A stretch of 45,476 nucleotides of DNA. Origin: an uncultured candidatus Brocadiaceae bacterium. Its GTDB lineage: Bacteria; Planctomycetota; Brocadiia; SM23-32. Below are positions 21,270 to 42,391 of this stretch, piece after piece. A model generated the notes under the pieces. It made no database searches. It was given only the letters and a program-made list of their open reading frames with translations, and had not been told where the DNA came from. Location of the stretch: contig CAZSET010000003.1 in assembly GCA_964605915.1 (NCBI GenBank), positions 2,886 through 48,361 of the forward strand, written 5' to 3'. Each line of letters opens with the position of its first letter. Positions within the stretch are counted from its first letter, which is position 1. Position numbers and translations under genes: made by a program.

Positions 21270-22301
21270 TCATCTGCTGCGGAAATCACGAAGCCTGGTG
21301 TTGTCTACCATCCGGCCAATCGTCTTTGGCGTGAAGACCTTCCCTTTGGCGGCGACCAGAAGCTTCTTCATGTCCTCCCGCCGTACCGCGAAACCACGTC
21401 CTCCAATGCATGCGACAACTTGGAACCGCGGACGCTCCTCAACGGTGCCAGCCAGGCTCACCTCGGCCAAGTGCTGAATCCGGGTCACCTTGTCGCGCGC
21501 AGTGCCATCATCCTGTGTGATCTTGGCCTCAATGACCACTTGTGGGTTCAGTTCGCTCGGCACAATGAAGTCAGGCGCCTGGTCAAAGCCCTCGATCCGT
21601 TCAGCGCGCTTCGTCTTGCGAAAGCTTATGCCGGCCTTGCTCAGTATGTCCTCGACGGTAGATTCCAGGCCTCCCCCGATGAGATCACTGACTGAGTCTC
21701 TATGACCTGCGAACGGCCGCCCCAGGAATCTCTCGTACAAAAGGACCGCATATGGAGCACCCATGTCAGCCAGACGGCGAATGCCATCGGCCCCGGTTCT
21801 TGTGTCCGCCTTGCCAAGGCGGTGTATCTCGCCGGCCTCCACGTCAGGAGCCCCTTGGCTGAGCAACTGGCACGCCACCTTAACCAACGCGCCAAGTCTG
21901 GACGCCGTAACGCCCGTGACAACCAGCGGCCCTTCGGGCGCCATCCGGATCCGTCTATCGAGGGAGCGAGCTGCTCCTTGCGTCACCTCGATGCCGGTCC
22001 TCTGAGTAGCGACATAGGCCCACTCCGGCGGCGTGAAACCCAACATGGAGCGAAGGACTATGAATGAGACGGGGTGACTTCTAACAGCGCGCAGGACAAG
22101 CTCCGGCCGGATGTCGGCAAAGCCGCCTGTAGCGCGCTTCAACGCCTCGTAGCCCTCCTCGAAGGTGGCGTACTCAATGAATCCCGGTCCTTTGGGAAGT
22201 ACGAGGAACTCCGATTCGAGGCAGGAGAAGACTGACGAAACATAAACGTCAAGGTTCTCCTGCATTTCCCCGAAGGGGACTTCAAAAGGGAACTTGAGCA
22301 T
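21270..22301 (-). CDS. Putative type II restriction endonuclease (PD-(D/E)xK)
   Basis: APDFIVPSELNPQVVIEAKITQDDGTARDK (21522-21572) is a classical D...E-x-K core. The start overlaps the stop of the upstream methyltransferase by 20 nt. Lower GC than the flanks. Confidence 0.6.
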   Translation of the reverse strand: MLKFPFEVPFGEMQENLDVYVSSVFSCLESEFLVLPKGPGFIEYATFEEGYEALKRATGGFADIRPELVLRAVRSHPVSFIVLRSMLGFTPPEWAYVATQRTGIEVTQGAARSLDRRIRMAPEGPLVVTGVTASRLGALVKVACQLLSQGAPDVEAGEIHRLGKADTRTGADGIRRLADMGAPYAVLLYERFLGRPFAGHRDSVSDLIGGGLESTVEDILSKAGISFRKTKRAERIEGFDQAPDFIVPSELNPQVVIEAKITQDDGTARDKVTRIQHLAEVSLAGTVEERPRFQVVACIGGRGFAVRREDMKKLLVAAKGKVFTPKTIGRMVDNTRLRDFRSR

Positions 22302-24489
22302 CTTGCGCTCCGTATGGGGTCTCTACCTCCTCCACTCGCGCCCCTTGGCGTGCCGGCACGGTTTCCAGGAGACCAGCAAGGTGTCGCTCGACGACTTCAA
22401 CACCTCCGAAGGAGGCCGTCCAGAGCCCCACCTTGTCCAAACGCTCCTTTGTAGGCCATGTGGGATCCCATTGCGGCCTGAGCGACCACACGCAGAGCCG
22501 CACCAGATGCCCGTGAATGATGCAGCGGATGTCCCCGGCAGTAGGTCTCACCCCTCCGTCTTCAAGAGCCGCGATATCCGCCCGCACAAGGCCGGCAACG
22601 CCTTCCGCTTGCTCGGGCAGCCACCGGCGGGGGACAGAGCCGGTGGAACGGCACACGAATACGGTATCTATGATGGAAGAGCTAGTGCCGCTAATGTGAA
22701 TGGAGGCCCCCATCTCAGCCGGACAGGGAAACGATGCCGAGCACGTGAGCCCACAGTCCAGGATCGCGATCGCCACCGGATAGTATGCGGCCAGTTCATT
22801 GTGATGATAGGTAAAGACAAGCGGAGTCCCAGGCTTGAGCGCCCGGGCCATGTGACAGAACGCCCTCGATAGGCCTTCGGCGAAGTGCTCAATTCCGCGG
22901 TCCATGCTCACGTTGGCCGTCAGCTCTCCTGGGGTTCGAGTGGAAACGCCCTCAAAGCCCGGCGTGCCCTTGGGCACAAGGCGGCGCAACCACACGTAGC
23001 AGAAGTCCATCAGCTCGGCATACTGCACGTTGCCGAAGTACGGTGGATCGGTGAAGACCCCATCAAGGCTGTTCGGAGGTAACGGTTTCTGCGTCGCGTC
23101 TGCGCAAGAGATCTCAACGCAACGGACTTCAGAATCCTGACCGCGCCGAGATTCGCCTATCCACTCACCTGGCAGGACAACTTTGGTTCTACGTCCATCT
23201 TCGTGTCGCACCTCATACGGTTTCGGGCAATAGGACTTCGCCTTCGCGAACTTATCGATCATGTTGCACCAGCCCCCACTGCCAATACACCCCCCCCGCA
23301 CCGGGTCTTCAATCCCCAGGAGGTTGGATTCGCACTGCACGAGGCCCACAGGGAAACCGTGGACCGAAAAGATGTCGAGTGACTTGAGGGCCATGGTGTC
23401 GTAACGGCAAAGCATGTTCTGATACCGCAGCAGATCCGATAGATTCGTTGCCAGTGCATCTCGGATCCTGGCGTTGCTGAACGCCGCAATGAACCGGCAA
23501 CTCAACTCGAGCCCCAGCAACTGCCGTGCATTGAACATCTCCCTATAATGCCTGTAACCCCATCGATGGAGTCTATCGCTCTCGTCGCCAGGAGGAATCT
23601 GCTCTTCCGGGACGAACGCCGCGTCCATCCCGTTGTAGCGATGCTCGGCTGTGGCAAAGCGCCCCAGATCCTGCTCATCAGGCGCCTTGAAGAAGCGTCC
23701 CTTATGGTCCGGCTTGCAGTTGGGGCAGTAGTACTCGATAGCAAACATGCGGTGACGCGGAGGCCCTCCGTGTGGATCAGGATACGAGCCGATGAAGCCG
23801 CAGTGCGGGCACTCGAATCTGTTTCGCCTGGCCGAAGCCGCGGCGGCAAACGGCTCATCACACGCGGCACAGCGCGACACTGCGTCCCGGCTTTCTGCCT
23901 CGGTGAGGGCACCGCACTTCCCGCAAACAAAGACGTACTTGGGGTGCCGACGATTCTTTGCAACGACTTTGCCCGGCAGCAATGCGACATCCGCGCCGCA
24001 GTTACGACACGACTGAACTTTGACCCATAGGAAGTACTTCGCCAGGGCATTCTCAGCCCCGCACAGAACGCACCGCGTATGGTACAGCTCCCCGATTTCC
24101 CCCAGCAGGTAACGCCTAAGCTGCCCCGTGGCCTCCGCGTAATCGTCCAGATCCAGGGACCGCATCTCTTCTCTAACTATCCAGTACGCCATCGGGTTGA
24201 CATCGTACCCGACGACGTCACACCCAAGACGGTTCGCCTCCAGCAGAGGAGTCCCGCCTCCCATAAAGGGGTCAGCGACACGCACCCCCGCCAGCTTGTT
24301 GGTCTTGTAGTAAACCTCTCGGAGGTCCCCGCCCGCAAACTCAGATAGCAACAGCCCCCGGAAAAGGGAGCCCGGCCGACGCGCGAACCACTTGTGAACA
24401 CATATGATGGGGCGGTAGTTCTGCTGTATCTGCTTCTCGCGAAGTGCGAGATTGGAGATAAACGGTACGTCGAAATCGTGTTCTATCAT
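22282..24489 (-). CDS. COG1743/DUF1156-type DNA methyltransferase with Zn-ribbon insertions
   Basis: N-terminal DUF1156-like HKWFARRPGSLFRGLL, SAM motif DPFMGGGTPLLEA and motif IV DPPY (23038-23049). Several CxxC pairs lie between them (CVLCG...CRNCG, CGKCG...CAAC, CPHCG, CPNC). Confidence 0.85.
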   Translation of the reverse strand: MIEHDFDVPFISNLALREKQIQQNYRPIICVHKWFARRPGSLFRGLLLSEFAGGDLREVYYKTNKLAGVRVADPFMGGGTPLLEANRLGCDVVGYDVNPMAYWIVREEMRSLDLDDYAEATGQLRRYLLGEIGELYHTRCVLCGAENALAKYFLWVKVQSCRNCGADVALLPGKVVAKNRRHPKYVFVCGKCGALTEAESRDAVSRCAACDEPFAAAASARRNRFECPHCGFIGSYPDPHGGPPRHRMFAIEYYCPNCKPDHKGRFFKAPDEQDLGRFATAEHRYNGMDAAFVPEEQIPPGDESDRLHRWGYRHYREMFNARQLLGLELSCRFIAAFSNARIRDALATNLSDLLRYQNMLCRYDTMALKSLDIFSVHGFPVGLVQCESNLLGIEDPVRGGCIGSGGWCNMIDKFAKAKSYCPKPYEVRHEDGRRTKVVLPGEWIGESRRGQDSEVRCVEISCADATQKPLPPNSLDGVFTDPPYFGNVQYAELMDFCYVWLRRLVPKGTPGFEGVSTRTPGELTANVSMDRGIEHFAEGLSRAFCHMARALKPGTPLVFTYHHNELAAYYPVAIAILDCGLTCSASFPCPAEMGASIHISGTSSSIIDTVFVCRSTGSVPRRWLPEQAEGVAGLVRADIAALEDGGVRPTAGDIRCIIHGHLVRLCVWSLRPQWDPTWPTKERLDKVGLWTASFGGVEVVERHLAGLLETVPARQGARVEEVETPYGAQDAQVPF

Positions 24490-26962: not shown

Positions 26963-27171
26963 ACACTTCCTCCGCTGGGATGGCAGCCGATGGTGGGAGC
27001 GACGCCTGCACGGAACGAAACTCTAAACATACCGGCGCCCCGGCGGCAGTGCAAATGCGCAGGGTCGCGGGGCGGCTCGTAGGGCCACACGGCGGGAGTT
27101 ATGCTATTCTCCGTAAAGCTGTGCCGCCGAAGGTGGGACTATTGGAGTGGAAGGCCTTCGAAGAGATAGGA

Positions 27172-28437
27172 ATGGGCGGGGATGACTTGCGTGCACTGGT
27201 GACTCAAGCTCAAGCGGGCGACCTGGATGCCTTCGGCGAGATTGTCCGGCGGTTCCAGGACATGGCGTACGGCTACGCGTACTCCCTTCTGGGCGACTTC
27301 CACCTCGCCGAGGATGCGGCGCAGGAGGCGTTCATCGAGGCCTACCGCTGCCTGCCGAAGCTGCGCGAGCCGGCTGCGTTTCCCGGCTGGTTCAGGAGGA
27401 TCGTGTTCAAGCGATGCGACCGACTGACAAGACGCAAGCGGGTGAGCACTGCTCCACTCGGATCGGTCGGCAGCGTCGCCTCCGAGAGCCCCGGGCCGCC
27501 AGAGAAGGCAGAGAGGCGGGAGATGAGGGACAAGGTGCTCGACGCCATCGGCTCCCTCCCCGACGAAGAGCGCGCAGTCACCACGCTCTACTACATCGAC
27601 GGCTATTCCCAGAAGGACGTTGCCGAATTCCTGGAGGTGCCGGTCACGACGGTCAACAACCGCCTCCACGCCTCGCGGCAGCGGCTCAAAGAAAGGATGA
27701 TTGCTATGGTTGCTGACACGTTGAGGTCCAACGCGCCCGACCCCGAGGAGGCACAAGACAAGGTACGCTTCCTTCTGCAATTCGGCGAGCGCATAGGCCG
27801 AGGGGAGCCAATCCTCGCGGCCCTTAACGCACTGCGCGAGCAAACAGAGAGCGAACGTCTACAAGACATCATCCGCCACATGGAGGCGGTCATAACGGCC
27901 GCCGGGTCCGTTTCCGAAGCGCTCGCAGAGGGTGAGGACTTGTTCCCGCCAATGGTACTCTCCCTCATCAACGACGGTGAGCGCTTCGGCATCCTGGACC
28001 AGACGATGCCCCTGGCCGGCGAGTGGTTGCGGGATGGGCGGTTCTCAGCCGATCCTCATCTGTTCGCCGGCGGTCTCACCGCCAATGTCCGCAAGTACGT
28101 GCAGCACGCTACTGATGCAGGCGCAACGGAGATTGTGATTGACAGCACTCAGGTTGGGCCTCATCCGGACGATCGGGAAGAGACTGTGGTGTGGGTTGAG
28201 CACGTGATGCCCGATGGCACGCGGAAGCAAACAGACTACATCCATCCTGGCTATTTCAACGAGATATCGCTTCAACTGAGGAACTTGACCGTCCTGGACG
28301 CGCGTCAGGAAGGGGACGCCATGAGAGGGACGCTTTTCTCTGGCCTGATGCCTGGCAGCGGACGAGGAACAACTTTGCCCGTGTCATACCGTCCTCTCCG
28401 CAACGGGGAAGTGATTCGAATCCGGGTTGCCCCATAG
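27172..28437 (+). CDS. ECF (group 4) sigma factor with about 235-aa C-terminal extension resembling GspF/PilC and GspE/PilB N-terminal modules
   Basis: Region 2 (FGEIVRRFQDMAYGYAYSLLGD...AQEAFIEAY) and region 4 (LPDEERAVTTLYYIDGYSQKDVAEFLEVPVTTVNNRLHASRQRLK). The rest is T2SSF-like (27760-28029) and T2SSE-N-like (28078-28431). The start at ATG 27172 is uncertain. Confidence 0.85.
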   Translation: MGGDDLRALVTQAQAGDLDAFGEIVRRFQDMAYGYAYSLLGDFHLAEDAAQEAFIEAYRCLPKLREPAAFPGWFRRIVFKRCDRLTRRKRVSTAPLGSVGSVASESPGPPEKAERREMRDKVLDAIGSLPDEERAVTTLYYIDGYSQKDVAEFLEVPVTTVNNRLHASRQRLKERMIAMVADTLRSNAPDPEEAQDKVRFLLQFGERIGRGEPILAALNALREQTESERLQDIIRHMEAVITAAGSVSEALAEGEDLFPPMVLSLINDGERFGILDQTMPLAGEWLRDGRFSADPHLFAGGLTANVRKYVQHATDAGATEIVIDSTQVGPHPDDREETVVWVEHVMPDGTRKQTDYIHPGYFNEISLQLRNLTVLDARQEGDAMRGTLFSGLMPGSGRGTTLPVSYRPLRNGEVIRIRVAP

Positions 28438-30757: not shown

Positions 30758-32360
30758 GCTTATGCCCCGGCCGCCGAAGACGAGCGCGACTGACTACCGC
30801 AAGGTGACCGGCTGGGAGCGCGTCCGGGAGGGCTACGCTGAGTACCTGCATGACGAGTCGCGCCTGGCCGCCGAGCGGGTCGAGGTGATTCATTTCCCGA
30901 CCAATGTGGACGAGGTGGCAGCGGCCCTGAGGAGCGCACGGCAGACGGGGCACCGCGTCGCCGTCTCCGGGGCCCGCACGGGCATCACCGGCGCCGCCGT
31001 CCCCCTGGATGCCGAGGAGATCCTGTCGCTCGAACGCATCAAGCCCAGGCCCAAGGTGCGGCGAGACGGCGGGGGCAACTGGACCGTGCGCGTCGGCGCC
31101 GGCACGACCGTGGCCGAACTGAACGACGCGCTCGACCACGGACTGTGCGACTATCCCGACGGCAAACCGGACGCTCCGCTCTTCTACCCCGTAGACACCA
31201 CGGAGACCTCGGCGCACCTGGGCGGAACAGTCGCGACCAACGCCTCGGGCGCGCGGACCCTCTACTACGGAGCGACGCGCCGCTGGGTTGAGGCGCTCAC
31301 CATTGTCACCGCAGACGCGCGCGTTCTTGAGCTACGACGCGGAGACGTCCGCGCAGAGGACGGCGTCCTTGCCTATCGGCGCGAAGACGGCGGGCGGGCC
31401 GAACTGCGCGTCCCCGATCTGCCCATGCCGAAGACCAAGCACACGGCCGGTTACTATCTGAAGCCCGGCATGGACGCGATCGAACTCTTCATCGGCAGCG
31501 AGGGAACGCTCGGCATCGTGGTCGAGGCGGAGCTGCGACTGGCCCCGAAACCGGCAAACCGGCTCTTCCTCACCCAGTTCGTCGAGGGACCGGACGACGC
31601 CGTAGCGCTCGTGCGGGCGTGCAAGGGAATCCCAGCGCTGACGCCGCTCGCCATCGAGTACATCGGCCCCCGCGCAATGGCGCTGCTGCGCACGATGGGC
31701 CGGCAGACGGCAGCCTACGTGGAAGTGTCCCGCCTGCCCGAAGATGCTGCCGCCATGCTTTACGTCGAAGCGCCGTTCGACGACGAGGCCCACCTGGACG
31801 CGATCTACGACGCGCTTCGGGAGGTCATCGGCGCGGCCGGGCTCGACCCCGCGCATAGCTGGGCAGGCTTCACCGAGAACGACATGGAGGAGATGAAGCG
31901 GCTCCGCCACGCCGTGCCGGAGACGGTCAACGCCATCATCGGGCAGCGCAAGGCAGACGTGCCGGAACTGCACAAGGTGGGCACGGACATGGCCGTGCCG
32001 GACGAGTCACTCGGCGCGATGATAGGAGTTTACGAGGGGCGGCTGGCGGCGTCCGGGCTGGACTTCGTGATCTTCGGCCACATCGGGGACGGGCACCTGC
32101 ACGTCAACATCCTGCCCGGCTCGGCGGCGGAGTTGCGCGCGGCGGAGGACCTCTACGCCCAGTTCGCGACCGAGGCGGTGCGGCTGGGGGGCAGCGTGGC
32201 GGCCGAGCACGGCATCGGGCGGATCAAGAAGCCGTTCCTGCCGATCCAGTTCAGCGCGGGGGACCTGGCCGCCATGCGGTCGATCAAGCAAGCGCTGGAC
32301 CCGGACTGGACGCTCAACCCCGGCGTCCTGTTCGACGCGCCGGAGGCGGCGCAAGACTAA
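30750..32360 (+). CDS. FAD-linked oxidase (GlcD/D-lactate dehydrogenase family)
   Basis: FAD_binding_4 region (VAVSGARTGITGAAVP) and C-terminal FAD-oxidase domain (HIGDGHLHVNIL, AEHGIG). ATG 30750 overlaps the etfA end by 8 nt. Confidence 0.9.
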   Translation: MNELMPRPPKTSATDYRKVTGWERVREGYAEYLHDESRLAAERVEVIHFPTNVDEVAAALRSARQTGHRVAVSGARTGITGAAVPLDAEEILSLERIKPRPKVRRDGGGNWTVRVGAGTTVAELNDALDHGLCDYPDGKPDAPLFYPVDTTETSAHLGGTVATNASGARTLYYGATRRWVEALTIVTADARVLELRRGDVRAEDGVLAYRREDGGRAELRVPDLPMPKTKHTAGYYLKPGMDAIELFIGSEGTLGIVVEAELRLAPKPANRLFLTQFVEGPDDAVALVRACKGIPALTPLAIEYIGPRAMALLRTMGRQTAAYVEVSRLPEDAAAMLYVEAPFDDEAHLDAIYDALREVIGAAGLDPAHSWAGFTENDMEEMKRLRHAVPETVNAIIGQRKADVPELHKVGTDMAVPDESLGAMIGVYEGRLAASGLDFVIFGHIGDGHLHVNILPGSAAELRAAEDLYAQFATEAVRLGGSVAAEHGIGRIKKPFLPIQFSAGDLAAMRSIKQALDPDWTLNPGVLFDAPEAAQD

Positions 32361-32377
32361 TCATATGTGAAGTGCTC

Positions 32378-32406
32378 TTGACTTCGCTCGCCTTTTTCCG
32401 TATAAG
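32378..32406 (+). promoter_or_regulatory. Near-consensus sigma70-type promoter for the HTH-methyltransferase
   Basis: TTGACT (32378-32383), 17-nt spacer, TATAAG (32401-32406), in a locally AT-rich gap. A 5-7-5 inverted repeat gaagt...acttc (32369-32385) overlaps the -35. Confidence 0.55.
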
Positions 32407-32442
32407 ACCGTTTAACACCCAGTATTCCCGCGGCTTCTCGCG

Positions 32443-34011
32443 GTGCGAGATATGGACATACTCACTGTTCAAGGGGCGGCGGAGCTTCTGGCCGTCGACG
32501 CCAAGACGGTTTACCGGCTGATCGAGCGTGACGGGCTGCCTGCCTTCAAAGTCGGTCGGCAGTGGCGCATGCGAGTGAGGGACCTGGAAGCGTGGATCGA
32601 CCGGCAGATGCAGGTGAACGAAGCGTCACCCACCTATCGCGCGGGGCAAACGGCACTGTTTCCCGAGGCCGAAGGCGGTGAGACTGGGCCGCATGAGGCC
32701 GGACGGGGGTTCAGCGACTCCGCCTTCTCTGAGAATGGCGACTTGCCCGTCCATAGGTGGGTCCCCTGGATAGCGGGGTTCAGCGCCACTTTCGTTCGTG
32801 AGGTGCTGGACCGTTACGCATCGGGGGACGCGCAGCCAGAAAGCCAGACTGTGCTCGACCCCTTCGCCGGAGTGGGGACAACGCTGGTTGCCGCCTCGCT
32901 GAGGGGGCACCCGGTCTGCGGCTTCGAGATCAACCCGTACGCTGCAGAAGCTGCCGAAGTCAAACTGAGCGCCCCGGCGATCCCAGCGGACGAACTCAGC
33001 CGCAAGATCGGCGAATTCGAGACGACCTTTCAGGAAGCGATCCGCACGGGGGCCTCTCCCAGAGGGTCAGCACCGCGCGGCTTCCGCACCAGGCGAAGGT
33101 TCCTTTCACCGCTGGTGGAACGAAAGGTCCTGCTCGCGAGAGACTTCATTGAGGATCTGAAGGACCCGCTGATTCGGAAGTGCTTCCGCATCGCGCTGGC
33201 CTCGGAACTGGTGGGGTTCTCCAATTACTCCTACGAGCCCAGCCTCGGCACGCGGGTCGCTGCGGGGAAACCCGAGGTGCCCGACGCGCCTGTTGCTCGC
33301 GCGATGGGCAGCAAGCTGAGGCTGATGGTCGAGGACGTGAAGGCGCTGCAACGGGACCTCCACGCCAAGGCATCCTTGCCCGCAGCAGAGCTCCACCAGG
33401 GAGACTTCTTTGAGCTAGAGCACGTCCTGCCGGACAACAGCATCCAGTTGGTCATCACTTCACCGCCGTACCTCAACAACTACCACTACATCCGCAACAG
33501 CCGGCCGCAGATGTACTGGTTGCGCCTGGCACACTCCCCAAATGACCTTAAGGCAGTGGAACGTGGAAGTTTCGGCAAGTTCTGGCAGACGGTGCGCGCG
33601 GGGGAAGCGCTAAGTCTGCGCTTCGACATGCCCGAGCTGGAGGAAAGCATTGGGTTCCTGCGCTCGGTGAACTCCCACAAGGGAGCGTATGGAGGCCCCG
33701 GCTGGGCAAACTACGCGGCCACCTATTTCAGCGATTGCCACCGGTTCGCCGGAATCCTCAGGCGCGTGCTCCGTCCAGGAGGGAAGGAGGTAGTCGTGCT
33801 GGGCAACAGCATTCTTCAGGGGGTCGAGTTTAGAACGGACGTGCTGTTTGGCCGCATATGCGAGCTGCAAAGCTTGAAGCTCGAAGAGGTGGTCCCATTG
33901 CGCGAGAAGCGCACGGGAACCAGCATCATCCGCTCGTCCGTGCGCTCAAACTCCGCGCGAGGGAAGACGACGCTGTACGAGTCGGCCGTCGTGGTGGGCA
34001 AGGCCCGCTGA
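32443..34011 (+). CDS. DNA methyltransferase (SPPY motif IV) with N-terminal excisionase/MerR-type HTH
   Basis: HTH_17-like LTVQGAAELLAVDAKTVYRLIERDGLPAFKVGRQWRM. SAM motif VLDPFAGVGTTLVAA and motif IV ITSPPY (33460-33471). Start is GTG 32443 or ATG 32452. Confidence 0.85.
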   Translation: MRDMDILTVQGAAELLAVDAKTVYRLIERDGLPAFKVGRQWRMRVRDLEAWIDRQMQVNEASPTYRAGQTALFPEAEGGETGPHEAGRGFSDSAFSENGDLPVHRWVPWIAGFSATFVREVLDRYASGDAQPESQTVLDPFAGVGTTLVAASLRGHPVCGFEINPYAAEAAEVKLSAPAIPADELSRKIGEFETTFQEAIRTGASPRGSAPRGFRTRRRFLSPLVERKVLLARDFIEDLKDPLIRKCFRIALASELVGFSNYSYEPSLGTRVAAGKPEVPDAPVARAMGSKLRLMVEDVKALQRDLHAKASLPAAELHQGDFFELEHVLPDNSIQLVITSPPYLNNYHYIRNSRPQMYWLRLAHSPNDLKAVERGSFGKFWQTVRAGEALSLRFDMPELEESIGFLRSVNSHKGAYGGPGWANYAATYFSDCHRFAGILRRVLRPGGKEVVVLGNSILQGVEFRTDVLFGRICELQSLKLEEVVPLREKRTGTSIIRSSVRSNSARGKTTLYESAVVVGKAR

Positions 34012-34262
34012 CGTCTCAGTGCGGGGTCCCCCAGACAGCCAGATGCTGCCGGACCTCCCCGATTATGCCCTCAGCGGATTCCTCCGGCTCCAACTCCAGC
34101 GCCCAACTGCGGCCGGGATGGACGATGTAGCAAAGCACAGTCAACAGCGAATCAACCGCCGTCCGCGCGGCCTTCCACCGCCAAGCCGCTGGAGTCTGGT
34201 GCGCGAGGTAAAGGGGGCCCGAGCGGTCCGTATAGGCAGGGCCGGCTGCCCCTTGGCGTCGC

Positions 34263-34290
34263 TTGACAGAGCGGAGAGTTTTACTACAAT
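34263..34290 (+). promoter_or_regulatory. Near-consensus sigma70-type promoter for the FRG / orphan gene pair
   Basis: TTGACA (34263-34268), 16-nt spacer, TACAAT (34285-34290), about 65 nt upstream of ATG 34356. Confidence 0.55.
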
Positions 34291-34355
34291 TGTGGCGTAA
34301 TGGGATCATCGACCGTGGGCGCACGTGTGCATTGGCGAAGGGGTCGGCGCCGCGT

Positions 34356-35156
34356 ATGAAGCTCCTCAGTTCTTACAAGCAGAAGCTTTACATAGCACGC
34401 GGGCCGAGATGCAAGGTCCTGCCCAACGCAATCGGATCACTCGGAGATTACCTTGACGTTACCAGCAGCCTCCATACCAGCAGCAGGGCTTTCTGGTATC
34501 GTGGCCACGCAGACATTGCGTGGAAGCTCACTCCTGCCGCACTTCGTCCACGGACCGTCGACAAAAGGAAGCAGGCGCTCCGTTTGCTGGACGAATTCAA
34601 GCGCGTCGCCCCGACCAAGTTGCCCCCCAATGTACCGCGCCCAGACGACGAACTCGAATGGCTTGGGCTTGCCCAGCACTACGGATTGCCAACACGTTTG
34701 TTGGACTGGACTCAGAATCCGTTGATAGCGCTGTACTTCGCTTGCGAAGGTCCCCGTGGATATGGCGCAGTCTTCCTTCTGAATCCTGCCGAACTCAATC
34801 GGCAATCCCTTGCGGGAGAAGCGAGGGTCCTTGACGCTCGTCGCGACGCTGACCGCCTGCGGACGTACCTTGCGTTGGGCGCCGAGCGGCGGAAGGACGG
34901 GCGGCCAACTGTGGCAGTTTACCCCGTGTACAACTCGGACCGGATTCTCCTGCAAAAGGGGGCATTCACGCTGCACGGTGACAAGAACTTCTCTCTAGAC
35001 AACAGACAGGCAAGCTCCCTTGTGTGCGTGCCGGTACTACCGGCCCATAAGAGCCTATTCCTCGCAGAGCTGGGACGGGTCGGAATCGACGAGATGTCAA
35101 TCTTCCCGGAACCGGAGCATGTGTGCAGACAGCTACGCCGTAGTATTGAGATCTGA
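34356..35156 (+). CDS. FRG-domain protein
   Basis: FWYRGH (34491-34508) followed by LGLAQHYGLPTRLLDWTQNPLIALYFA, the two signature blocks of the FRG domain (PF08867). Start at ATG 34356 (the TTG at 34263 coincides with the promoter). Confidence 0.8.
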   Translation: MKLLSSYKQKLYIARGPRCKVLPNAIGSLGDYLDVTSSLHTSSRAFWYRGHADIAWKLTPAALRPRTVDKRKQALRLLDEFKRVAPTKLPPNVPRPDDELEWLGLAQHYGLPTRLLDWTQNPLIALYFACEGPRGYGAVFLLNPAELNRQSLAGEARVLDARRDADRLRTYLALGAERRKDGRPTVAVYPVYNSDRILLQKGAFTLHGDKNFSLDNRQASSLVCVPVLPAHKSLFLAELGRVGIDEMSIFPEPEHVCRQLRRSIEI

Positions 35157-35168
35157 GGTACTACCGCC

Positions 35169-36350
35169 ATGAGCGATTACCTACCCTTCGCGACTAGCGT
35201 GGACGACTGCCGCCTGATCCACCGCTTCTACTCGGACCCGGTTTGCGTACGGGTGGGGCTGCATGTCGCCAACGACGTAGTGAACCACCTCGGCGACGTG
35301 CCTATCTGGTTGGATCCATGCTTTGATGCATACCCATACGCCAGGCCGGACAGCACATGGGCCCAGTTCGTGTCGCAGTTCGAGGGCCATGATGTCTTGA
35401 CTGACCAGAAGCTTACAGATCGGGTGAGCACGCGGAAACTCCCCGATGCTTCAGCGGCTGCGCTGAGGGATCTTACGAACAGGGCCCTGGACGCATGCTT
35501 GGCGTACGCCCCAGACTGGGTATCAGTACCTCAGTTGCCACAAACGGATGGTAACGAACGCAACAGGGCAAACCGGGAGCTTGCGAAGGCGACCCGAGAG
35601 TGGGGAGAAGCGAACGCAGAATGCTCGCTGATCCTCCCACTGATCTTCACAAACCAGAGACAGGTAACCACAAAGACAGCATGGCAGAAGAAGGTACGCA
35701 CAGCCCGCAGGAACTACGAGTTGTCGGGCGCCGCAGGTCTGTGGATCGTAGACTCAAGTCTCGACGACCACCGCGGCACGAGCACAAACGAGGCCCGCCG
35801 CTTCCCAGCGTTGATTGACTTGCACCAATGCATCCGCGAGCAGTTCGCTGATGCCAGAGTTGTGGCGGGCCCATATTGGGGGATGAACCTAGTCCTCTGG
35901 GCACGCGGTCTAATCGATAACCCGGCTGTGGGAGTAGGCAGGGGTTACCAGTACTACTGCACCGGTGGGTTTATATCAAGGGCGATGCCAAGATTGGCCC
36001 TCCCGCCCCTGCGTCGCCAAGCCATGGCAGACGATGAACTGCCAGGCTGGCTAGACAAGTGTCTCGCGACGTTGCAGTCGACAGATCCTGCCTACGCGGA
36101 GCTCATGGCTCTCCGTCGAGACTACGACTTACTGCGCCTTGAACCCAGGGACCAAATGGCGGGGTTCTACAAACGCTGGTACCAGAGCATCGCGGAAGTA
36201 CCCCGGCGCGGGCGAGCGCTTGCATTGTACGAGGACCTGTCCAGCGCGTTCGTACTAGGCAAGATGCTGGCGACCCCCTTACCCTCTGAGACAGGCCATG
36301 CCAAGAAGCCTGAGATCCCGGCGAAGCAACTCATGCTCTTTTGTCTGTGA
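35169..36350 (+). CDS. Hypothetical 393-aa protein, no recognisable family
   Basis: ATG 35169 lies 12 nt after the FRG stop, with GAGG upstream. Alternating hydrophobic-strand/helix pattern (IWLDP, WVSVPQL, LILPLIF, LWIVDSS, VVAGPYWG, AVGVGRG) suggests an alpha/beta barrel-like fold. Lower GC. Confidence 0.7.
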   Translation: MSDYLPFATSVDDCRLIHRFYSDPVCVRVGLHVANDVVNHLGDVPIWLDPCFDAYPYARPDSTWAQFVSQFEGHDVLTDQKLTDRVSTRKLPDASAAALRDLTNRALDACLAYAPDWVSVPQLPQTDGNERNRANRELAKATREWGEANAECSLILPLIFTNQRQVTTKTAWQKKVRTARRNYELSGAAGLWIVDSSLDDHRGTSTNEARRFPALIDLHQCIREQFADARVVAGPYWGMNLVLWARGLIDNPAVGVGRGYQYYCTGGFISRAMPRLALPPLRRQAMADDELPGWLDKCLATLQSTDPAYAELMALRRDYDLLRLEPRDQMAGFYKRWYQSIAEVPRRGRALALYEDLSSAFVLGKMLATPLPSETGHAKKPEIPAKQLMLFCL

Positions 36351-37029
36351 GGTGATGCCGCCAAAGCCTTTCGGCTTCGTACGTCTGCGTGACGGTCCCA
36401 CTCTTGCCCCGTCTCTTCCTCCCGCTGGACGGAATTAGCACGGACACGCCTTCGGGAGAGATTCCCAGCAAACCGACCTGCGCAGACAGGAACTGGGCCC
36501 TACCAGATCCTTCGGCTACGTTGCCAGCCGACTCCACTGGAAGCCCAACGTAGGACTCATCCGCGAAGGCAAGGTACCGCCGAGCCTGACGAAGAGCTTC
36601 CGACACACGGGCTAGCTTCAACTCGACGGCGAGGATCCTGTCGTGAATCGGATGCCAGTCGCCGATCCTCTGGTAAGCTCCTCTGTTTGTTCGGCGCAAG
36701 AATCGGTCCCTTGTCAACGAGTCCACCTCGCGCCGTATCCGCTCCTCCCGGAAGAGCCGAGCGTACCGTTCGTACAGAACGGAGAAGCCCACAGAGCGAC
36801 GCTCTCTGATGCGGGGGATGTGATGCCAGACGTCCACCCTCAGGAGCGGGCCAAGCTGACGCATCTGGCCCAATGCGATCCTAGCATCGAGACGCTCGGG
36901 ATTCAGCGAGTAGGCCACGAGGTCACACACGCCTGCGCAACTGGCGAACTCCTGCTTCACGCTAAGCCTCTGACAGCGCAGCCAGCGCACCACAGGCTCT
37001 GTCATGTCGCACTCGAACTCAAAGGGCAC
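36331..37029 (-). CDS. Putative PD-(D/E)xK-fold nuclease with about 90-aa insertion
   Basis: E27 (KQEF), D36 (VCDLVAY) and E136-L-K138 (ILAVELKL) are separated by a basic, helical insert (aa 42-130). GTG 37029 is preceded by GGAGG at 10 nt. The 3' end overlaps the convergent 393-aa gene by 20 nt. Confidence 0.55.
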   Translation of the reverse strand: MPFEFECDMTEPVVRWLRCQRLSVKQEFASCAGVCDLVAYSLNPERLDARIALGQMRQLGPLLRVDVWHHIPRIRERRSVGFSVLYERYARLFREERIRREVDSLTRDRFLRRTNRGAYQRIGDWHPIHDRILAVELKLARVSEALRQARRYLAFADESYVGLPVESAGNVAEGSGRAQFLSAQVGLLGISPEGVSVLIPSSGRKRRGKSGTVTQTYEAERLWRHHLTDKRA

Positions 37030-37153
37030 GTTCCGCAGACCTCCAGCGCCGCTGGGCTTCGGCTCTCGCTTATGACGCCTCTCACACCTCTTCCGGCTGC
37101 CCCGTATACACGATCAGGCAAAGTGAGTGCAAGGTAAGACATCCAAAGCTGGC

Positions 37154-37570
37154 CTATATGCTGGGATTGGACCGTGGACGTGCCCGGCTCTCAGGCCCTT
37201 CCAGGACGACCTGGGCGATGGCGAAGTCGCGGTGGTGGGTCATGCTGACGTGCACGCGCTCGACGCCGAGCTCGCGGCTGAGCTCCAGCGCCCGACCCGA
37301 GAACGTCACGGCCGGCGCCCCCAGCTCGTTGTTGGATATCTCCGCCTCGAGGAATCGCACCCCCTGGCTCCAGCCCACGCCCAGGGCCTTCAGTGCCGCC
37401 TCCTTCGCTGCAAATCGGGTAGCGAAGCGCTCCTCCGGGCGCGGTCCTGCGCGGCAGTAGTCGGCCTCCCGGTCGGTAAAGACGCGGCCGACGAACCGGG
37501 CCCCGTAGCGCCGAACCGCGCGCTCGATCCTCCCCACCTCGACCAGGTCCACGCCGATCCCGACGATCAT
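37154..37570 (-). CDS. acpS: Holo-[acyl-carrier-protein] synthase
   Basis: MIVGIGVDLVEVGRIERA..., FAAKEAALKALG, MTHHRDFAIAQVVLE. Start at ATG 37570. Confidence 0.9.
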   Translation of the reverse strand: MIVGIGVDLVEVGRIERAVRRYGARFVGRVFTDREADYCRAGPRPEERFATRFAAKEAALKALGVGWSQGVRFLEAEISNNELGAPAVTFSGRALELSRELGVERVHVSMTHHRDFAIAQVVLEGPESRARPRSNPSI

Positions 37571-37651
37571 GCGTCGCTCCCGGGGTACCTGAAGGAGCCT
37601 ACCTCTCACCCCAGCGCACGGGTGCTGCACGGCGCGCCTCGGCCGCCGGCG

Positions 37652-38743
37652 TCACTCCTCCTCGGCCTCTTTGGCGCCGTCTCCACCGGCCACTGCTTCG
37701 GCCCGCTCGATCTGCTCGCGCCGTTTCTCGGCGAGGGTGGGCGAGACCTTCTCGAATACCGCGATCTCGATCTCCCGGGCCAGATCCGGGTTCTCTTCGA
37801 GGAACTGGCGCGCGTTCTCCTTGCCCTGACCGAGCCGCGTCTCGCCGTAGGAGTACCACGCGCCCGACTTCTCAACGACGTCGTACTCGCTTCCGAGGTC
37901 CAGCAGGTCGCTCTCGCGGGAGATGCCCTTGCTGAAAAGGAGTTCGATCTCGGCGGTTCGGAACGGGGGAGCCACTTTGTTCTTGGCGACCTTCACGCGG
38001 CAACGATTCCCGACGTTCTCGCCGCCTTCCTTTATGCTGGCGATGCGGCGCAGTTCGACGCGGACGGAGCTGTAGAACTTCAGCGCCCGCCCGCCCGGGG
38101 TCGTTTCCGGATTGCCGAACATCACGCCGATCTTCATCCGCACCTGGTTGACGAAGACGACGGCGGTCCGGGACTTGGAGATGCTGGCGGCCAGCTTGCG
38201 AAGCGCGCGCGACATCAGGCGCGCCTGGAGGCCGATGGTCTGGTCTCCCATCTCCCCCTCGATCTCGGCCCGCGGCACGAGTGCGGCCACCGAGTCCACC
38301 ACGACGATGTCCAGCGCGCTGCTCCGCACGAGGGCCTCAACGATGTCGAGGGCCTGCTCGCCCGACTCGGGCTGGTTGATGAGCAGGTCCTCGATATTGA
38401 CCCCGAGGGACTGCGCGTACTTGATGTCCAGGGCGTGCTCCGCGTCGATGAAGGCGGCCACGCCGCCGAGCTTCTGGGCCTCGGCCACCATGTGCAGGGC
38501 GAGGGTCGTCTTGCCCGAGGCCTCGGGACCGTAGACCTCGACGACCCGTCCGCGGGGCACACCGCCGACGCCCAGGGCCAGGTCCAGCGCCGGCGAGCCC
38601 GTGGGGATGGTCTCGATGTCCAGCCGTGCCTCCCCGTCGCGCAGCCGCATGATGGCTCCCTTGCCGAACTGCTTCTCGATCAGCTCGAGCGTTCTCTCCA
38701 GCGCCTTCTTTCGTTCGTCCTTCTCGTCGCTGCTCTTGGCCAT
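37652..38743 (-). CDS. recA: Recombinase A
   Basis: [21 protein letters not shown], Walker [65 protein letters not shown]. Start at ATG 38743. Confidence 0.97.
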
Positions 38744-40822
38744 CTGTGGCACCTGTGGGTAGAGCGGGTTGGTTCTCGGCTGTCCGAACGTATTGTAGTC
38801 GTTTGCCGCCCGGTTGCCAACGGAAACGGCGCGCGCGTCGCCGGCGGGCCGACTGCAACCATCTACTCGCCTGCCCGTTCCGCGGCGCCGGGCCCCTCGA
38901 TGCGGCGCCGCAAGAAGCCCACCCAGGACGAAAGCAGACGACGGCGGCGCGGCGCTCAGCTCCCCCAGGTAGACCTCGAGGAACCGGTCCGCCGCCGACG
39001 GGGACGCGGACCCGGCCAGCGAAGAGGCGAGTGTCGCCAGATCCAACCCGGCCAGCATCTGGCGCACGACGCCCGGCAGCCAGCCCACCCACCTGGCCCG
39101 GCCCAGGCCGACGAGCGATACCTCAGGCTCTTCAGTGTCCCCATCGGCGCACACAAGCACGTTCTCGTCCGTCAAACCGAGGTGCAAATACGCCGCCCGA
39201 TGGAAGGACCTGACGGCGGCGGTAGTTGCCCTGATGAGGGCGTCTTCCTCTGCCGAAGCCGCGCCGAAGTGGCCCGCCCCGTCCATCTCACGGAGCCGAT
39301 AGCGCAACGTAACCGCGCCGGGCAGCTCTTCGGCAAGCAGGAACTGATCCCTGTGCCAACGCGGGCCCCTTTCCATGTGGCAGACGTGGAAGGGGACTGC
39401 CGCTCCCCGGGCTCGGGCGGCCGTCGCACAGTTCCAGAACTGCTTCGCTTCGGAACCGCACAGCACCGTCGCAGCTACCCGGGGAAGACGGGAGTGGGGG
39501 CGGTATCGCTTCGCGATGAATCGATCCGAGGCACCCGCCACACGTGCCGGGACGGAAACCACCGTGCGATGCCTGCTCCGCTTGACCAGCTCGACGCCGG
39601 ACCCCCTCATGAAATCGTCCGGATAGCAGAGCCGGGTATAGAACTCGGGCGCGCTGTAGCAGGTGGCGATTCGACCGCGCCACTTGCCCAGCCGGAAGCG
39701 GTACGTGAACGGCTGGCGGATAGGCCCTTCACGGGCGCGACGCTCCCCGCCGCCGTCCAGCACGTCGAGCGCCGCCCCCAGCACCTGCCGCACGGTGATG
39801 CTCGTCATGCAGCGCACGTGCCTGCACCTGCGGCGGGAGCAGGGACGGCAGGCCGCACTGCCCGTGACCACCACGCTTCGACTGCAGTACGGGCCGGTCT
39901 GGACCGGATCCTTAGGCCCGAACAGGGCAACGACCGGCACGCCGAGCGCGGAGGCGATGTGCATGGGGCCTGTGTCGCTGCCAATGAACAGATCCGCCCT
40001 GCGGAGCAGGTGGATCAACTGGCCGACGCGCTCAGTGCGCGGGGCGAGGGACCCAGGCCGCCTCATGGAGGCCACGACCTGCTCGGCCAGCTCCCTGTCC
40101 GCCGGGCCGTAGGTCACGAGCACGTCGGCGCCCCGATCGGCCACCAGGCGGTCGGCCACGCGGGCGTATCGTTCGGGCAGCCAGCGCTTGAAGGCGGCGA
40201 ACTTGCTGGTGCCGGGATGGATGACAACGAGCGGCCCGCCGCTGAGCCGCCCTTCCAAGGCTTCCTCCAGGCGCCGGGCATCCCTCTCACGCCGGGGCAC
40301 GACCGGATCTGCGTAGCGGGTGGCAATGCCGAGCGGCGCCAGCAAGGCCAGGTCGCGCTCGATGCGGTGGACGCCCGCCGTCGGCACGCTGACCAAGTGG
40401 TTCTGGACCAGGCGGTTGAACTCGCGGTTGACGCCGCCGCCGAATCCCACCCGCATCCCGGCCCCGGCGGCGGCCACCAGCCAGGCGCTCTTAATGCTGC
40501 TCTGGAAGTCCACCGAGATGTCGAACTCCCGTTGGCGCAGCAGTTGCGCCATCTCCTTCAGCTCGGCGCCCAGGGCGAGCCAGCGGAAAGGCGTCTTGAC
40601 CATCTTCCCCCAGATCGTGCGGGGCACCGTGATGAGTTCGTCGATGTGGGGGTGGCGCCGCAGGAGCCCGCTGAATCTGTCCTCGACCAGCCAGGCGATG
40701 TGGGCGTCGGGCCGCTCCTGTCTGAGCAGCGAGAGGGCGTTGAGCGCGTGAGCGACGTCGCCCAGACCGCTCAGTCGGATGCAGAGGATCCTGCCGCCCG
40801 TGTTGCGCTCGCAGATGGTCAT
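38744..40822 (-). CDS. Glycosyltransferase family 9 (LPS heptosyltransferase-like) fused to a Kdo/WaaP-type LPS-kinase-like domain; 3' end undefined
   Basis: GT9: [47 protein letters not shown]. Kinase-like: [12 protein letters not shown]..., [19 protein letters not shown]. The frame continues without a stop into recA (ORF 37652-40822), so the true C-terminus is unknown. Confidence 0.75.
38792..38820 (-). promoter_or_regulatory. Candidate sigma70-type promoter for recA
   Basis: On the minus strand: TTGGCA (38820-38815), 17-nt spacer, TACAAT (38797-38792), about 50 nt upstream of the recA ATG. It lies inside the stop-less tail of the upstream ORF. Confidence 0.5.
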
Positions 40823-40853: not shown

Positions 40854-42170
40854 TCACGCTTCGCGCTGGATCTTGCGCGTTCGCTCGGCCAGGCCCGAGA
40901 TGGTCAGGTCCGACTCGCCGGCAACGACCGTGCCGATGCGGTCCCTGAGCGGATCGCTCCAATGATCGGGGATCGCCTCGGCACCGATCATTGCGCCGAG
41001 CACAGAGCCCGCCGTAGCACCGTTGCAGTCCGTGTCCAGCCCCGCCCTCACCGCAAGTCCGATGGTGCGCGAGTAGTCCCTCTCGCCCCACAGCAGGCCC
41101 ATGGCCACGATGGCCGCGTTATTGATCGTGTGCACGCCGTGATAGGTGCCGTACGTGTCCAGGATGTTGTCGATCGCTTCCTCGGCGGAGCAGCCCTCCT
41201 CGCGCCAGGCAAGCACCTGGTGGATGGCTTCGGCGAGCCGGCATTCCCGAGGGATCTCGGACAGGCCGATGCGCACGACCTTCTCCACGTCGTCCGCCAC
41301 GAAGGCTACGGCCAGCATCGCGGCCACCCACATCTCGCCGTAGATGCCGTTTTTCACGTGGCTTACGCAGGCGTCCTTGAAGGCGAGCCCGGCCGCCTCC
41401 TCCGGCCTGCCGGGGCAGGCATAGCCGAAGCCGTCGGCGCGGATCTGCGCCCCAATCCACTCCCTGTAGGGATTGCGATGCATGGCGCTCTGGGGCGGCC
41501 AGATGCCGTTTGCGAAGTTCCGGTAGGCCACGCGCTCGGCGGTGTACGTGCAGGCGTAGGGCAGGTGCGCCATCCAGAACTCGGCCACCTGGCGGGGAGT
41601 GAACCCTCTGCCGTGCTGCTCCAGTATCCGCAGGCCCACGATCGTGTAATCCGTATCGTCGTCGCGCACGCCGCCCTCAATGTGGCCGCGTAGAAGCTTT
41701 ATGGACCATGCGGGGAACTCGATCCCGCGGTTATTCTCGGCAGGCGGCGGGAAGTAGTCCGTCAGATCTTCCAGGCCGCATACTTCCATCAGGTCGTCTA
41801 TCTTCTCTTTGCGCCATCCCTCCACCGGCTTCCCCAGCATGCAGCCGGCGGCCCGGCCGAGCCAGGCGCCCAGCGTCTTGTCGTCAAGCTCTTCGTCGGA
41901 GAGGGGGACGGCGATGTGTCGCGGCCCGTCCGGTCGGCGTTCCCGTATTCCTTCCAGGTCGCTCGGCTCGTCGTAGGGGAAGTCGGCGGCAGGCCCCAGG
42001 TTGGCCAGGGCCTCGCACAGTGCCCGGGCCCGCTTGGGCTGATCGGGGCCGCCTTCTTCTTCGATCAGGGACGCCTTGCGCTCGAACTCCCAGGTGTCAC
42101 AGCCCTCTTCCGAAAGCTGCTTCAGCTCTTCGCGTGCGAACTTCAACAGCTCGTCCGCGTTCTCGGCCAT
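40854..42170 (-). CDS. ADP-ribosylglycohydrolase-family protein with about 100-aa N-terminal extension
   Basis: [25 protein letters not shown] and [17 protein letters not shown] are the ARH metal-binding blocks. Start at ATG 42170 (MAENADELL). Confidence 0.85.
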
Positions 42171-42391
42171 GGCGCTGTGCCTTTCCGCGCATGTGTTCTG
42201 CCGCTCCAAGTAACGTCCCGGTACTACGTATCAGAAAAGGGCAGGGCGCGCAAGGAACGGCCTTCGGGCGCCCAAGAGGCCGGTTGCCGCCGCGCGGGGG
42301 GCCCGGGCATGGGCGTCCTCGTCCCTGCTTCTGCAAAGCATGAGCACGATGGCTTGGGGACTCGCTGCCCATCGGCCCCGTGATCAGAACG

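Follow-up and report, generated by a model that had tools for sequence, protein, structure and literature searches.

We analysed a 45,476-nucleotide (nt) stretch of DNA from an uncultured candidatus Brocadiaceae bacterium (GenBank assembly GCA_964605915.1, contig CAZSET010000003.1, positions 2,886 to 48,361 of the forward strand), referred to below as the window. Within it we focused on a low-GC island of four open reading frames (ORFs): one encodes a methyltransferase with a fused helix-turn-helix (HTH), one an FRG-domain protein, and two encode proteins of 393 and 232 amino acids that we call O393 and N232. The last three genes, here termed the triad, recur as a set in many other genomes. 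The features of the island and its borders are as follows.

32361..37153, no strand assigned: low-GC island, between a flavin adenine dinucleotide (FAD)-linked oxidase gene and acpS
Stop at 32360: FAD-linked oxidase gene, the upstream flank (Pfam)
32378..32406, plus strand: promoter-like TTGACT-17-TATAAG upstream of the methyltransferase gene (direct reading)
32443..34011, plus strand: HTH-methyltransferase ORF, 522 amino acids (ORF list)
34263..34290, plus strand: TTGACA-16-TACAAT, near-consensus sigma-70-type promoter of the FRG-O393 operon (11/12 matches)
34356..35156, plus strand: FRG-domain gene, first gene of the triad, 266 amino acids (Pfam FRG; PADLOC PDC-S15)
35169..36350, plus strand: O393, second gene of the triad, 393 amino acids (TIM-barrel model)
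36331..36350, no strand assigned: convergent 3' overlap of O393 and N232, 20 nt (ORF ends)
36331..37029, minus strand: N232, third gene of the triad, 232 amino acids, convergent with O393 (conserved nuclease-type residues)
Stop at 37154: acpS, the other flank (Pfam)

The four ORFs, the two flanking stops, the 12-nt spacer from the FRG stop to the O393 ATG, and the GGAGG that lies 10 nt 5' of the GTG start of N232 had all been called in a first-pass annotation made from the sequence alone, and were confirmed by the ORF list and by direct reading. Both promoter-like sites of that annotation are also present. The TTGACA site was the sole one given by a promoter scanner in 32000-37700; the TTGACT site fails the scanner's rule of a T at position 6, hence went unreported, and was recognised by direct reading. 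The FRG ORF as first drawn spans 34263-35156, and we take the ATG at 34356 as its most likely start, which gives 266 amino acids, because the TTG at 34263 belongs to the -35 hexamer and because orthologues align from residue 1 of the 266-residue form. For the methyltransferase, gene callers in other samples use an ATG at 32452, for a protein of 519 amino acids. N232 shares its strand with acpS and follows it directly on the 3' side, so that read-through transcription from acpS into N232 is possible. A site scan reported no terminator-like site between O393 and N232 (36331..36350).

To place these genes in context, we took advantage of 63 loci in metagenome-assembled genomes (MAGs) that were found by a genome scan for O393 and then searched with the four window proteins by tblastn. 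Of the 63 loci, 50 carried FRG, O393 and N232 together, with unvarying order and orientation; the remaining 13 were mostly truncated by the contig end or decayed. A reciprocal scan of metagenomes with an FRG profile yielded 80 loci. Among these, FRGs at least 43% identical to the window FRG were accompanied by O393 in 13/13 and by N232 in 9/9 informative loci, in which the downstream sequence was long enough for the call to be made, and FRGs that were 27-41% identical were accompanied by O393 in 0/47 and by N232 in 0/25.

Spacing within the triad is similarly constrained. Across 55 loci, two of them from IMG/VR, the FRG stop and the O393 start were separated by -4 to +17 nt in all but two (53/55), and the 3' overlap of O393 with N232 was 14 or 20 nt in the large majority. 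We note that these two overlap classes recur across phyla. The convergent overlap implies that the mRNA 3' ends are complementary and that both C-termini are under joint constraint; the C-terminus of O393 carries a conserved ...M-L-x-C-L. Across loci, the pairwise distances for FRG, O393 and N232 co-vary (Mantel r 0.85-0.90, p = 0.001). From the co-occurrence, the fixed spacing, the co-variation of distances and the reciprocal FRG test, we conclude that the conserved unit is the triad. It is independent of the methyltransferase and mobile over at least eight phyla, with hosts in Planctomycetota, Acidobacteriota, Verrucomicrobiota, Desulfobacterota, Binatia, Gemmatimonadota, Ignavibacteriales and Myxococcota.

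The flanks of the triad are heterogeneous across loci, with no conserved fourth gene or methyltransferase beside it, and the commonest flanking cluster was found at 3 of approximately 60 loci. Carriage of the triad on plasmids or phages was rejected on the basis of plasmid, phage and IMG/VR searches; there were no O393 homologues in 72,556 plasmids or 50,697 phages. FRG and O393 are translationally coupled, and this coupling together with the 14- or 20-nt convergent overlap makes for an unusually rigid architecture, in hosts that are mostly uncultured bacteria. Our literature search found no published description of the FRG, O393 and N232 combination, in keeping with the first-pass suggestion of an undescribed module.

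The island itself is compositionally foreign. Its GC content is 0.609, against 0.667 in the rest of the window, and is below that of all 311 other 4.8-kb segments of the stretch. GC at third codon positions (GC3), scored for the methyltransferase, O393 and N232 with FRG left out, is 0.70-0.77, against 0.81-0.93 for most backbone genes. The departure from the backbone had already been proposed from hand counts of 34/60, 36/60 and 48/60 GC in single 60-nt lines, which proved exact. At the borders we found no tRNA, as had been stated, as well as no flanking repeats and no Rfam match. The same arrangement is present in other samples of the population (L150, L151, L153), and an empty insertion site, sought in other samples of this population, was not found, as all carry the island. 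Four short contigs with an identical acpS (L149, L150, L151, L152) break at the acpS-side border or at most approximately 300 nt past it, and this may reflect assembly trouble from strain heterogeneity there.

The methyltransferase that shares the island was described in the first pass as an HTH-fused protein with an SPPY motif, and Pfam bears this out (HTH_17 at residues 7-55, 6.7e-15; N6_N4_Mtase, 3.2e-09), as does a PADLOC match to MTase_II (1.6e-24). Motif I, DPFAGVGTT (residues 139-147, 32857-32883), precedes motif IV, SPPY (residues 340-343, 33460-33471), and the order of motifs is therefore that of the alpha class. The closest annotated relative is M.DraR1 of Deinococcus radiodurans CP1 (44.4% identity over residues 90-516, E = 2e-104), an alpha-class N4-methylcytosine (m4C) methyltransferase that targets CCGCGG and whose cognate nuclease, R.DraR1, is a GIY-YIG enzyme encoded ten ORFs away (PMC10855626). 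A Haloarcula virus encodes another homologue, 31% identical and annotated as an N4-cytosine methyltransferase. The window enzyme is thus of the alpha class, probably with an m4C product, and its specificity is possibly CCGCGG. Membership in MADS was considered and rejected: the NCBIfam MAD1 match reached 50.4 bits against a cutoff of 80 and covered the HTH region only, the PADLOC mad2 match was weak (1e-08) relative to MTase_II, and there are no other mad genes in the island.

The window has far fewer CCGCGG sites than dinucleotide shuffles predict (23 against 60.6 +/- 8.3). Such depletion is compatible with past restriction at CCGCGG in the lineage and is no proof of it. One site, at 32428-32433, lies in the methyltransferase leader, 3' of the -10-like hexamer and ahead of the start codon, and may bear on autoregulation through the fused HTH; another example is at 35771-35776. 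No GIY-YIG gene turned up in the window when it was scanned with a simple pattern.

In the first-pass reading the methyltransferase marks self DNA, and N232 with FRG and O393 restricts DNA that lacks the mark. The placement of the methyltransferase next to the triad in one low-GC island speaks for such a classical restriction-modification (R-M) system, and the CCGCGG depletion suggests restriction pressure at the very site of the enzyme's characterised relative. That annotation had made its reading depend on all four genes co-occurring in other genomes; FRG, O393 and N232 do so strictly, whereas a homologue of the methyltransferase is missing from all 143 loci at which the triad or a relative of FRG occurs, none having been found in 63 genome loci, 80 metagenome loci or, in addition, 3 viral loci, and the four-gene version fails. 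No methyltransferase family is conserved beside the triad, and N232 occurs in more than 60 genomes without a conserved adjoining methyltransferase. In addition, the relative M.DraR1 is paired with a GIY-YIG nuclease and not with one of the PD-(D/E)xK type (PMC10855626), and the GC3 of the methyltransferase (0.77) is unlike that of O393 and N232 (0.70-0.71). We therefore consider a classical R-M system hardly tenable. The methyltransferase accompanies the triad only in other samples of the same population (L153). It is a lineage-specific passenger that stands outside the module, and the island consists of two unrelated cargoes, the methyltransferase and the triad. The enzyme may work alone or with an unlinked nuclease.

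The second gene of the triad had been noted as one with no nameable family, and our searches agree. Neither O393 nor N232 had a match by sequence in Pfam, NCBIfam, PADLOC or PDB; profile searches of PDB with both proteins returned nothing, nor did a Pfam scan of 30 O393 and 37 N232 family members at E values up to 5. O393 has at least 239 full-length homologues at approximately 40% identity. At E <=1e-3 the family comprises 316 cluster representatives out of 1.84 billion (218 at <=1e-30), and essentially all members are single-domain proteins of approximately 390 amino acids. O393 represents a new, small, isolated family.

An AlphaFold2 model of O393, built from a 30-sequence alignment, had a mean predicted local distance difference test (pLDDT) score of 92 and a predicted template modelling (TM) score, pTM, of 0.91, so the fold is confidently modelled as a (beta/alpha)8 TIM barrel that carries a helical bundle at its C-terminal end. 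In a Foldseek search against PDB the top TM-scores belonged to tRNA-guanine transglycosylase (TGT) structures (6rkq, 0.51; 2ash, 0.47), with generic TIM barrels at approximately 0.33. The TGT E-values were just 6e-4 to 2e-3, and by this measure generic TIM barrels rank alongside. Matches in BFVD include phage TGT/DpdA-type proteins at TM-scores of at most 0.39. Residues conserved in at least 90% of sequences are W47, D49, D53, Q122, Q165, D200, G234-P-Y-W-G238, N240 and R283; many tryptophans are conserved, and H219 and C392 are near-invariant. In the model several of the conserved residues, Asp included, are at or just past the C-terminal ends of barrel strands. We infer a pocket rich in carboxylate, aromatic and arginine side chains, of a kind that would suit glycosyl or ribosyl chemistry on a phosphorylated ligand.

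We considered whether O393 is a true TGT or DpdA and rejected this on sequence grounds. An hhalign comparison with E. coli Tgt gave a probability of 0.4%, Pfam PF01702 was not detected in the window protein or in 30 relatives (E up to 5), and no TGT was found with PDB profiles. The CxCxxC...H zinc site has no counterpart in O393, which has no conserved Cys/His cluster. A metal-dependent TIM-barrel nuclease of the TatD/Endo IV type is not favoured either, as there is no conserved His/Glu metal cluster. AP-endonuclease folds score below TGT as fold neighbours of O393.

For N232, the first-pass annotation had proposed a restriction-endonuclease fold interrupted by a basic insert. Its E/D/ExK residues are indeed invariant: E6, E27, D36, E136 and K138 are conserved in 62 orthologues and also in 37 database homologues, and their order is the canonical PD-(D/E)xK order. 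The insert is approximately 65 residues long (about residues 60-125, nt 36655-36852), and in the AlphaFold2 model (pLDDT 80) it forms three helices and a hairpin. The fold itself was not recovered, as Foldseek matched the winged-helix part alone (Zur, Fur, MarR, Rpa2-WH), all at E >=0.016. We find it plausible that N232 is a PD-(D/E)xK nuclease split by a winged-helix insert, and refer to it as a putative nuclease.

The FRG assignment made in the first pass is well founded. The Pfam FRG domain (PF08867) matched with E = 1.6e-23 and 83.8 bits against a cutoff of 25, and the PADLOC PDC-S15 model (PDLC04938) matched with E = 1.5e-50 over model positions 42-270 of 276. We take the "S" of this PADLOC label to denote a single-gene candidate. 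In a 43-sequence alignment (A6), the invariant residues are W47 and R49 (in a WYRG motif), R64, W102, H108, T113, R114, D117, W118, R196, Q200 and K232. The Aravind laboratory has placed FRG in the ADP-ribosyltransferase (ART) superfamily, which takes in the RNA 2'-phosphotransferase KptA, and has predicted it to be an NADase-type antiviral effector (PMC9503650). The invariant R49, T113, D117, R196 and Q200 would fit an ART assignment, with which they are compatible without being diagnostic. FRG is unmentioned in the eLife 2020 paper, and our literature search found no tested function for PDC-S15 or for the FRG subclade of the window.

A sister FRG subclade provides a useful parallel. At 15 loci, its FRG gene is followed 0-50 nt downstream by a gene for a protein of approximately 355 amino acids, for which Pfam gives GmrSD_N/DUF262 and PADLOC gives NsnA and PD-T4-2_A as matches. 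The loci with this operon include L085, L094, L099, L112, L117, L122, L125, L136, L138, L139 and L141. FRG with GmrSD_N/DUF262 is thus another FRG-containing candidate system, one that PADLOC, as we read it, handles as a single gene, and the triad and these operons together lead us to propose that FRG recurs as the first operon gene with a defence-type partner predicted to target DNA.

We next consider the genes that surround the triad at its other loci. Adjacency to known defence genes was confirmed, in that approximately 10 of 111 nearest-neighbour ORFs are such genes, a count that has no matched control. We judge a proportion of approximately 10% to be well above that for a typical gene. 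Strong PADLOC neighbours are SngC, a type III restriction endonuclease, BrxC, Avs2, type IIG, BrxHI, HmaC, ShosA and type II methyltransferases; Pfam neighbours include ResIII (4 members), Eco57I (2), BglII, RhuM, integrases (3) and a transposase.

Most of the neighbours are housekeeping genes, which could favour a role of the triad in housekeeping or stress-related modification or repair of tRNA or DNA, by a TGT-like barrel, a Tpt1/KptA-like ART and an endonuclease, with no part in conflict. TGTs are the best fold neighbours of O393, and KptA falls within the ART superfamily (PMC9503650), as such a role would predict. Several observations point the other way. The distribution is patchy, as the 316 cluster representatives among 1.84 billion indicate, and the context differs from locus to locus, with foreign composition in the window. 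The triad is often pseudogenised, its FRG is a PADLOC defence candidate, and we saw nothing that connects it with queuosine or tRNA genes. We judge a housekeeping role distinctly improbable.

The pattern of gene decay is also instructive. FRG is the triad gene most often lost or broken: six loci lack it (L018, L041, L042, L059, L061 and L066), and in L053 it is interrupted by an in-frame stop. In L042, L059, L061 and L066, O393 survives as a truncated, frameshifted or remnant gene. N232 is intact in these four loci and in L041, with its invariant catalytic-type residues kept, and no locus has FRG and O393 without N232. Because N232 is intact where FRG or O393 has decayed, it is evidently tolerated alone, which argues against a nuclease that needs FRG and O393 for self-protection. 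The decay pattern points to FRG as the costly component.

These observations bear directly on a non-methyl form of R-M, in which FRG and O393 would write an NAD-derived or base-exchange mark and N232 would cleave unmarked DNA. The arrangement is suggestive, with a two-gene "writer" operon convergent with a nuclease-like gene and a conserved 3' overlap, and a convergent writer/nuclease layout is common in type II R-M systems. The best fold neighbours of O393 are base-exchanging TGTs, FRG is classed as an ART-fold enzyme (PMC9503650), and, since no conserved S-adenosylmethionine-dependent methyltransferase is nearby, the self-mark would have to come from the triad. The persistence of N232 in the four loci with a broken O393 and no FRG, and also in L041, should nevertheless be lethal in such a system. 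O393 moreover fails the tests of TGT membership, and no genes for the biosynthesis of a base precursor are linked to the triad. On balance we think this form of R-M unlikely.

The same decay pattern could be expected of a selfish toxin-antitoxin or addiction module, in which FRG would be an ART-type toxin, O393 its enzymatic antidote in the manner of DarT-DarG, and N232 a DNA-binding regulator or accessory. FRG is the gene lost first, and there is no solid case of an intact FRG with a broken O393, the sole candidate being L025, from a long-read MAG. The tight translational coupling of FRG with O393 and the winged-helix insert of N232 would suit these roles, and ART-fold toxins with enzymatic antitoxins are established (DarTG). 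The nuclease-type residues of N232 are invariant in 62 orthologues, however, and a pure regulator would have no need of them; to our knowledge there is no precedent for a TIM barrel as an antitoxin that removes ADP-ribosyl groups. The frequency of defence genes among the neighbours is a further point against this proposal, although toxin-antitoxin and defence roles are not mutually exclusive. We regard an addiction module as doubtful at best.

Our preferred interpretation is that the triad is a self-contained, horizontally mobile defence (conflict) module, linked to nicotinamide adenine dinucleotide (NAD+) and directed against mobile elements, and we assign it a tentative probability of roughly 0.45. 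N232 and O393, the latter with a proposed pocket that resembles base-exchanging ribosyltransferases, would form an arm that recognises and processes nucleic acid. FRG, with its predicted ADP-ribosyltransferase fold, would be coupled to O393 as a costly NAD+-consuming effector and, on detection of foreign DNA, might act by NAD+ depletion or by ADP-ribosylation of nucleic acid. Through the convergent 3' overlap, the FRG-O393 operon and N232 could exert reciprocal control on each other, either transcriptional or antisense.

A number of points weigh against this interpretation. In the model of a defence module each biochemical activity, and the order of events, is one that we infer. A profile search of PDB with FRG was empty, and the ART fold rests on the published classification (PMC9503650). 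Neither sequence nor profile comparison makes O393 a TGT, and a TM-score of at most 0.51 is borderline. Confidence in the modelled PD-(D/E)xK core of N232 is low, with pLDDT below 50 at residues 31-37 around D36, and the fold search did not recognise this core. The predominance of housekeeping genes among the neighbours and the defence enrichment without a matched control count here too. The triad is near-absent from viral contigs (3 IMG/VR contigs of 2.9 million) and does not occur in the plasmid collection. Finally, many loci are from MAGs, some of them long-read, in which frameshifts may be sequencing errors; because decayed loci are also few, the argument from decay rests on approximately 5-7 of them.

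A bolder proposal is that the triad carries out ribosyl-transfer chemistry on nucleic acid that would be novel to immune systems, in either of two versions. In the first, FRG would ADP-ribosylate DNA or RNA bases, O393 would excise or exchange the adducted base, and N232 would cut the marked or the unmarked nucleic acid. In the second, FRG and O393 would install an NAD-derived or base-exchange modification of DNA that N232 reads. We think it improbable that either version is correct. If one were, immunity based on modification would gain a new class, assembled from two families without known relatives.

Our results tie one FRG subclade, as an obligate member, to a three-gene cassette whose other members have no Pfam, PADLOC or PDB relative. 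The triad gives a genomic context in which the role of the FRG domain can be worked out, and is a cloneable candidate for a new NAD+-linked defence mechanism. From the perspective of annotation, a tool that recognises FRG by itself overlooks two-thirds of the system, and the island illustrates that a methyltransferase beside a nuclease-like gene can be a coincidence.

In the course of this work we also noted other features of the window. A second low-GC patch at 21270-24489 on the minus strand (GC approximately 0.59-0.61, GC3 approximately 0.68) encodes a 735-amino-acid DNA methyltransferase that matches the PADLOC HmaB, DUF1156_MTase and PglX-type models, followed by a 343-amino-acid protein with no Pfam or PADLOC match. 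This patch is probably another horizontally acquired module of the R-M or defence type. An ADP-ribosylglycohydrolase gene (PF03747, E = 1.5e-53) lies at 40857-42209 on the minus strand, 3.7 kb from the FRG gene, and has the high GC3 of the backbone. We rejected a link with FRG on account of this backbone GC3 and because no homologue was found near other triad or FRG loci, so that its nearness looks coincidental. At 26980-28434 on the plus strand, a 485-amino-acid ORF (GC3 0.73) has an unusual architecture that combines regions 2 and 4 of an extracytoplasmic function (ECF)-type sigma-70 factor with T2SSF (type II secretion protein F). Lastly, recA (start 38743) is in frame with an upstream heptosyltransferase/Kdo-kinase-like gene with no stop between them, which gives a mechanical 1056-amino-acid ORF at 37652-40822 on the minus strand; according to the gene callers in another sample, the upstream gene ends in a different frame.

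Among known systems, the triad invites comparison with DarTG. Both couple an enzyme placed in the ART superfamily to a second enzyme, both are associated with defence islands, and in both the putative toxin gene decays first. The triad differs in having a TIM-barrel partner and no macrodomain, and in its obligatory third, nuclease-like gene; its FRG also belongs to another ART clade, with a predicted NADase activity (PMC9503650). O393 has in common with TGT and DpdA its (beta/alpha)8 barrel, its approximate size and a C-terminal helical part, and its top TM-scores are with TGT structures, yet no preQ0, queuosine, DpdB or DpdC genes are near the triad. The methyltransferase, for its part, is best compared with the DraI R-M system of D. 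radiodurans, which it resembles in 427 residues of homology, in alpha-class order and in the depletion of CCGCGG in the window; the window enzyme has an extra N-terminal HTH_17, and the pattern scan of the window gave no GIY-YIG gene to go with it.

The triad can also be compared with other FRG genes. The window FRG and PDC-S15 match nearly end to end, share the Pfam FRG domain and are both found near defence genes; the difference is that the FRG subclade of the window is locked to two further genes, which PADLOC does not model. The sister FRG operons resemble the triad in that FRG comes first and is followed by a putative DNA-targeting partner. They have a single partner of the ParB/GmrSD-N type, whereas the partners in the triad are a TIM barrel and, convergent with it, a nuclease-like protein with a winged helix, and the FRGs of the sister operons are 27-41% identical to that of the window.

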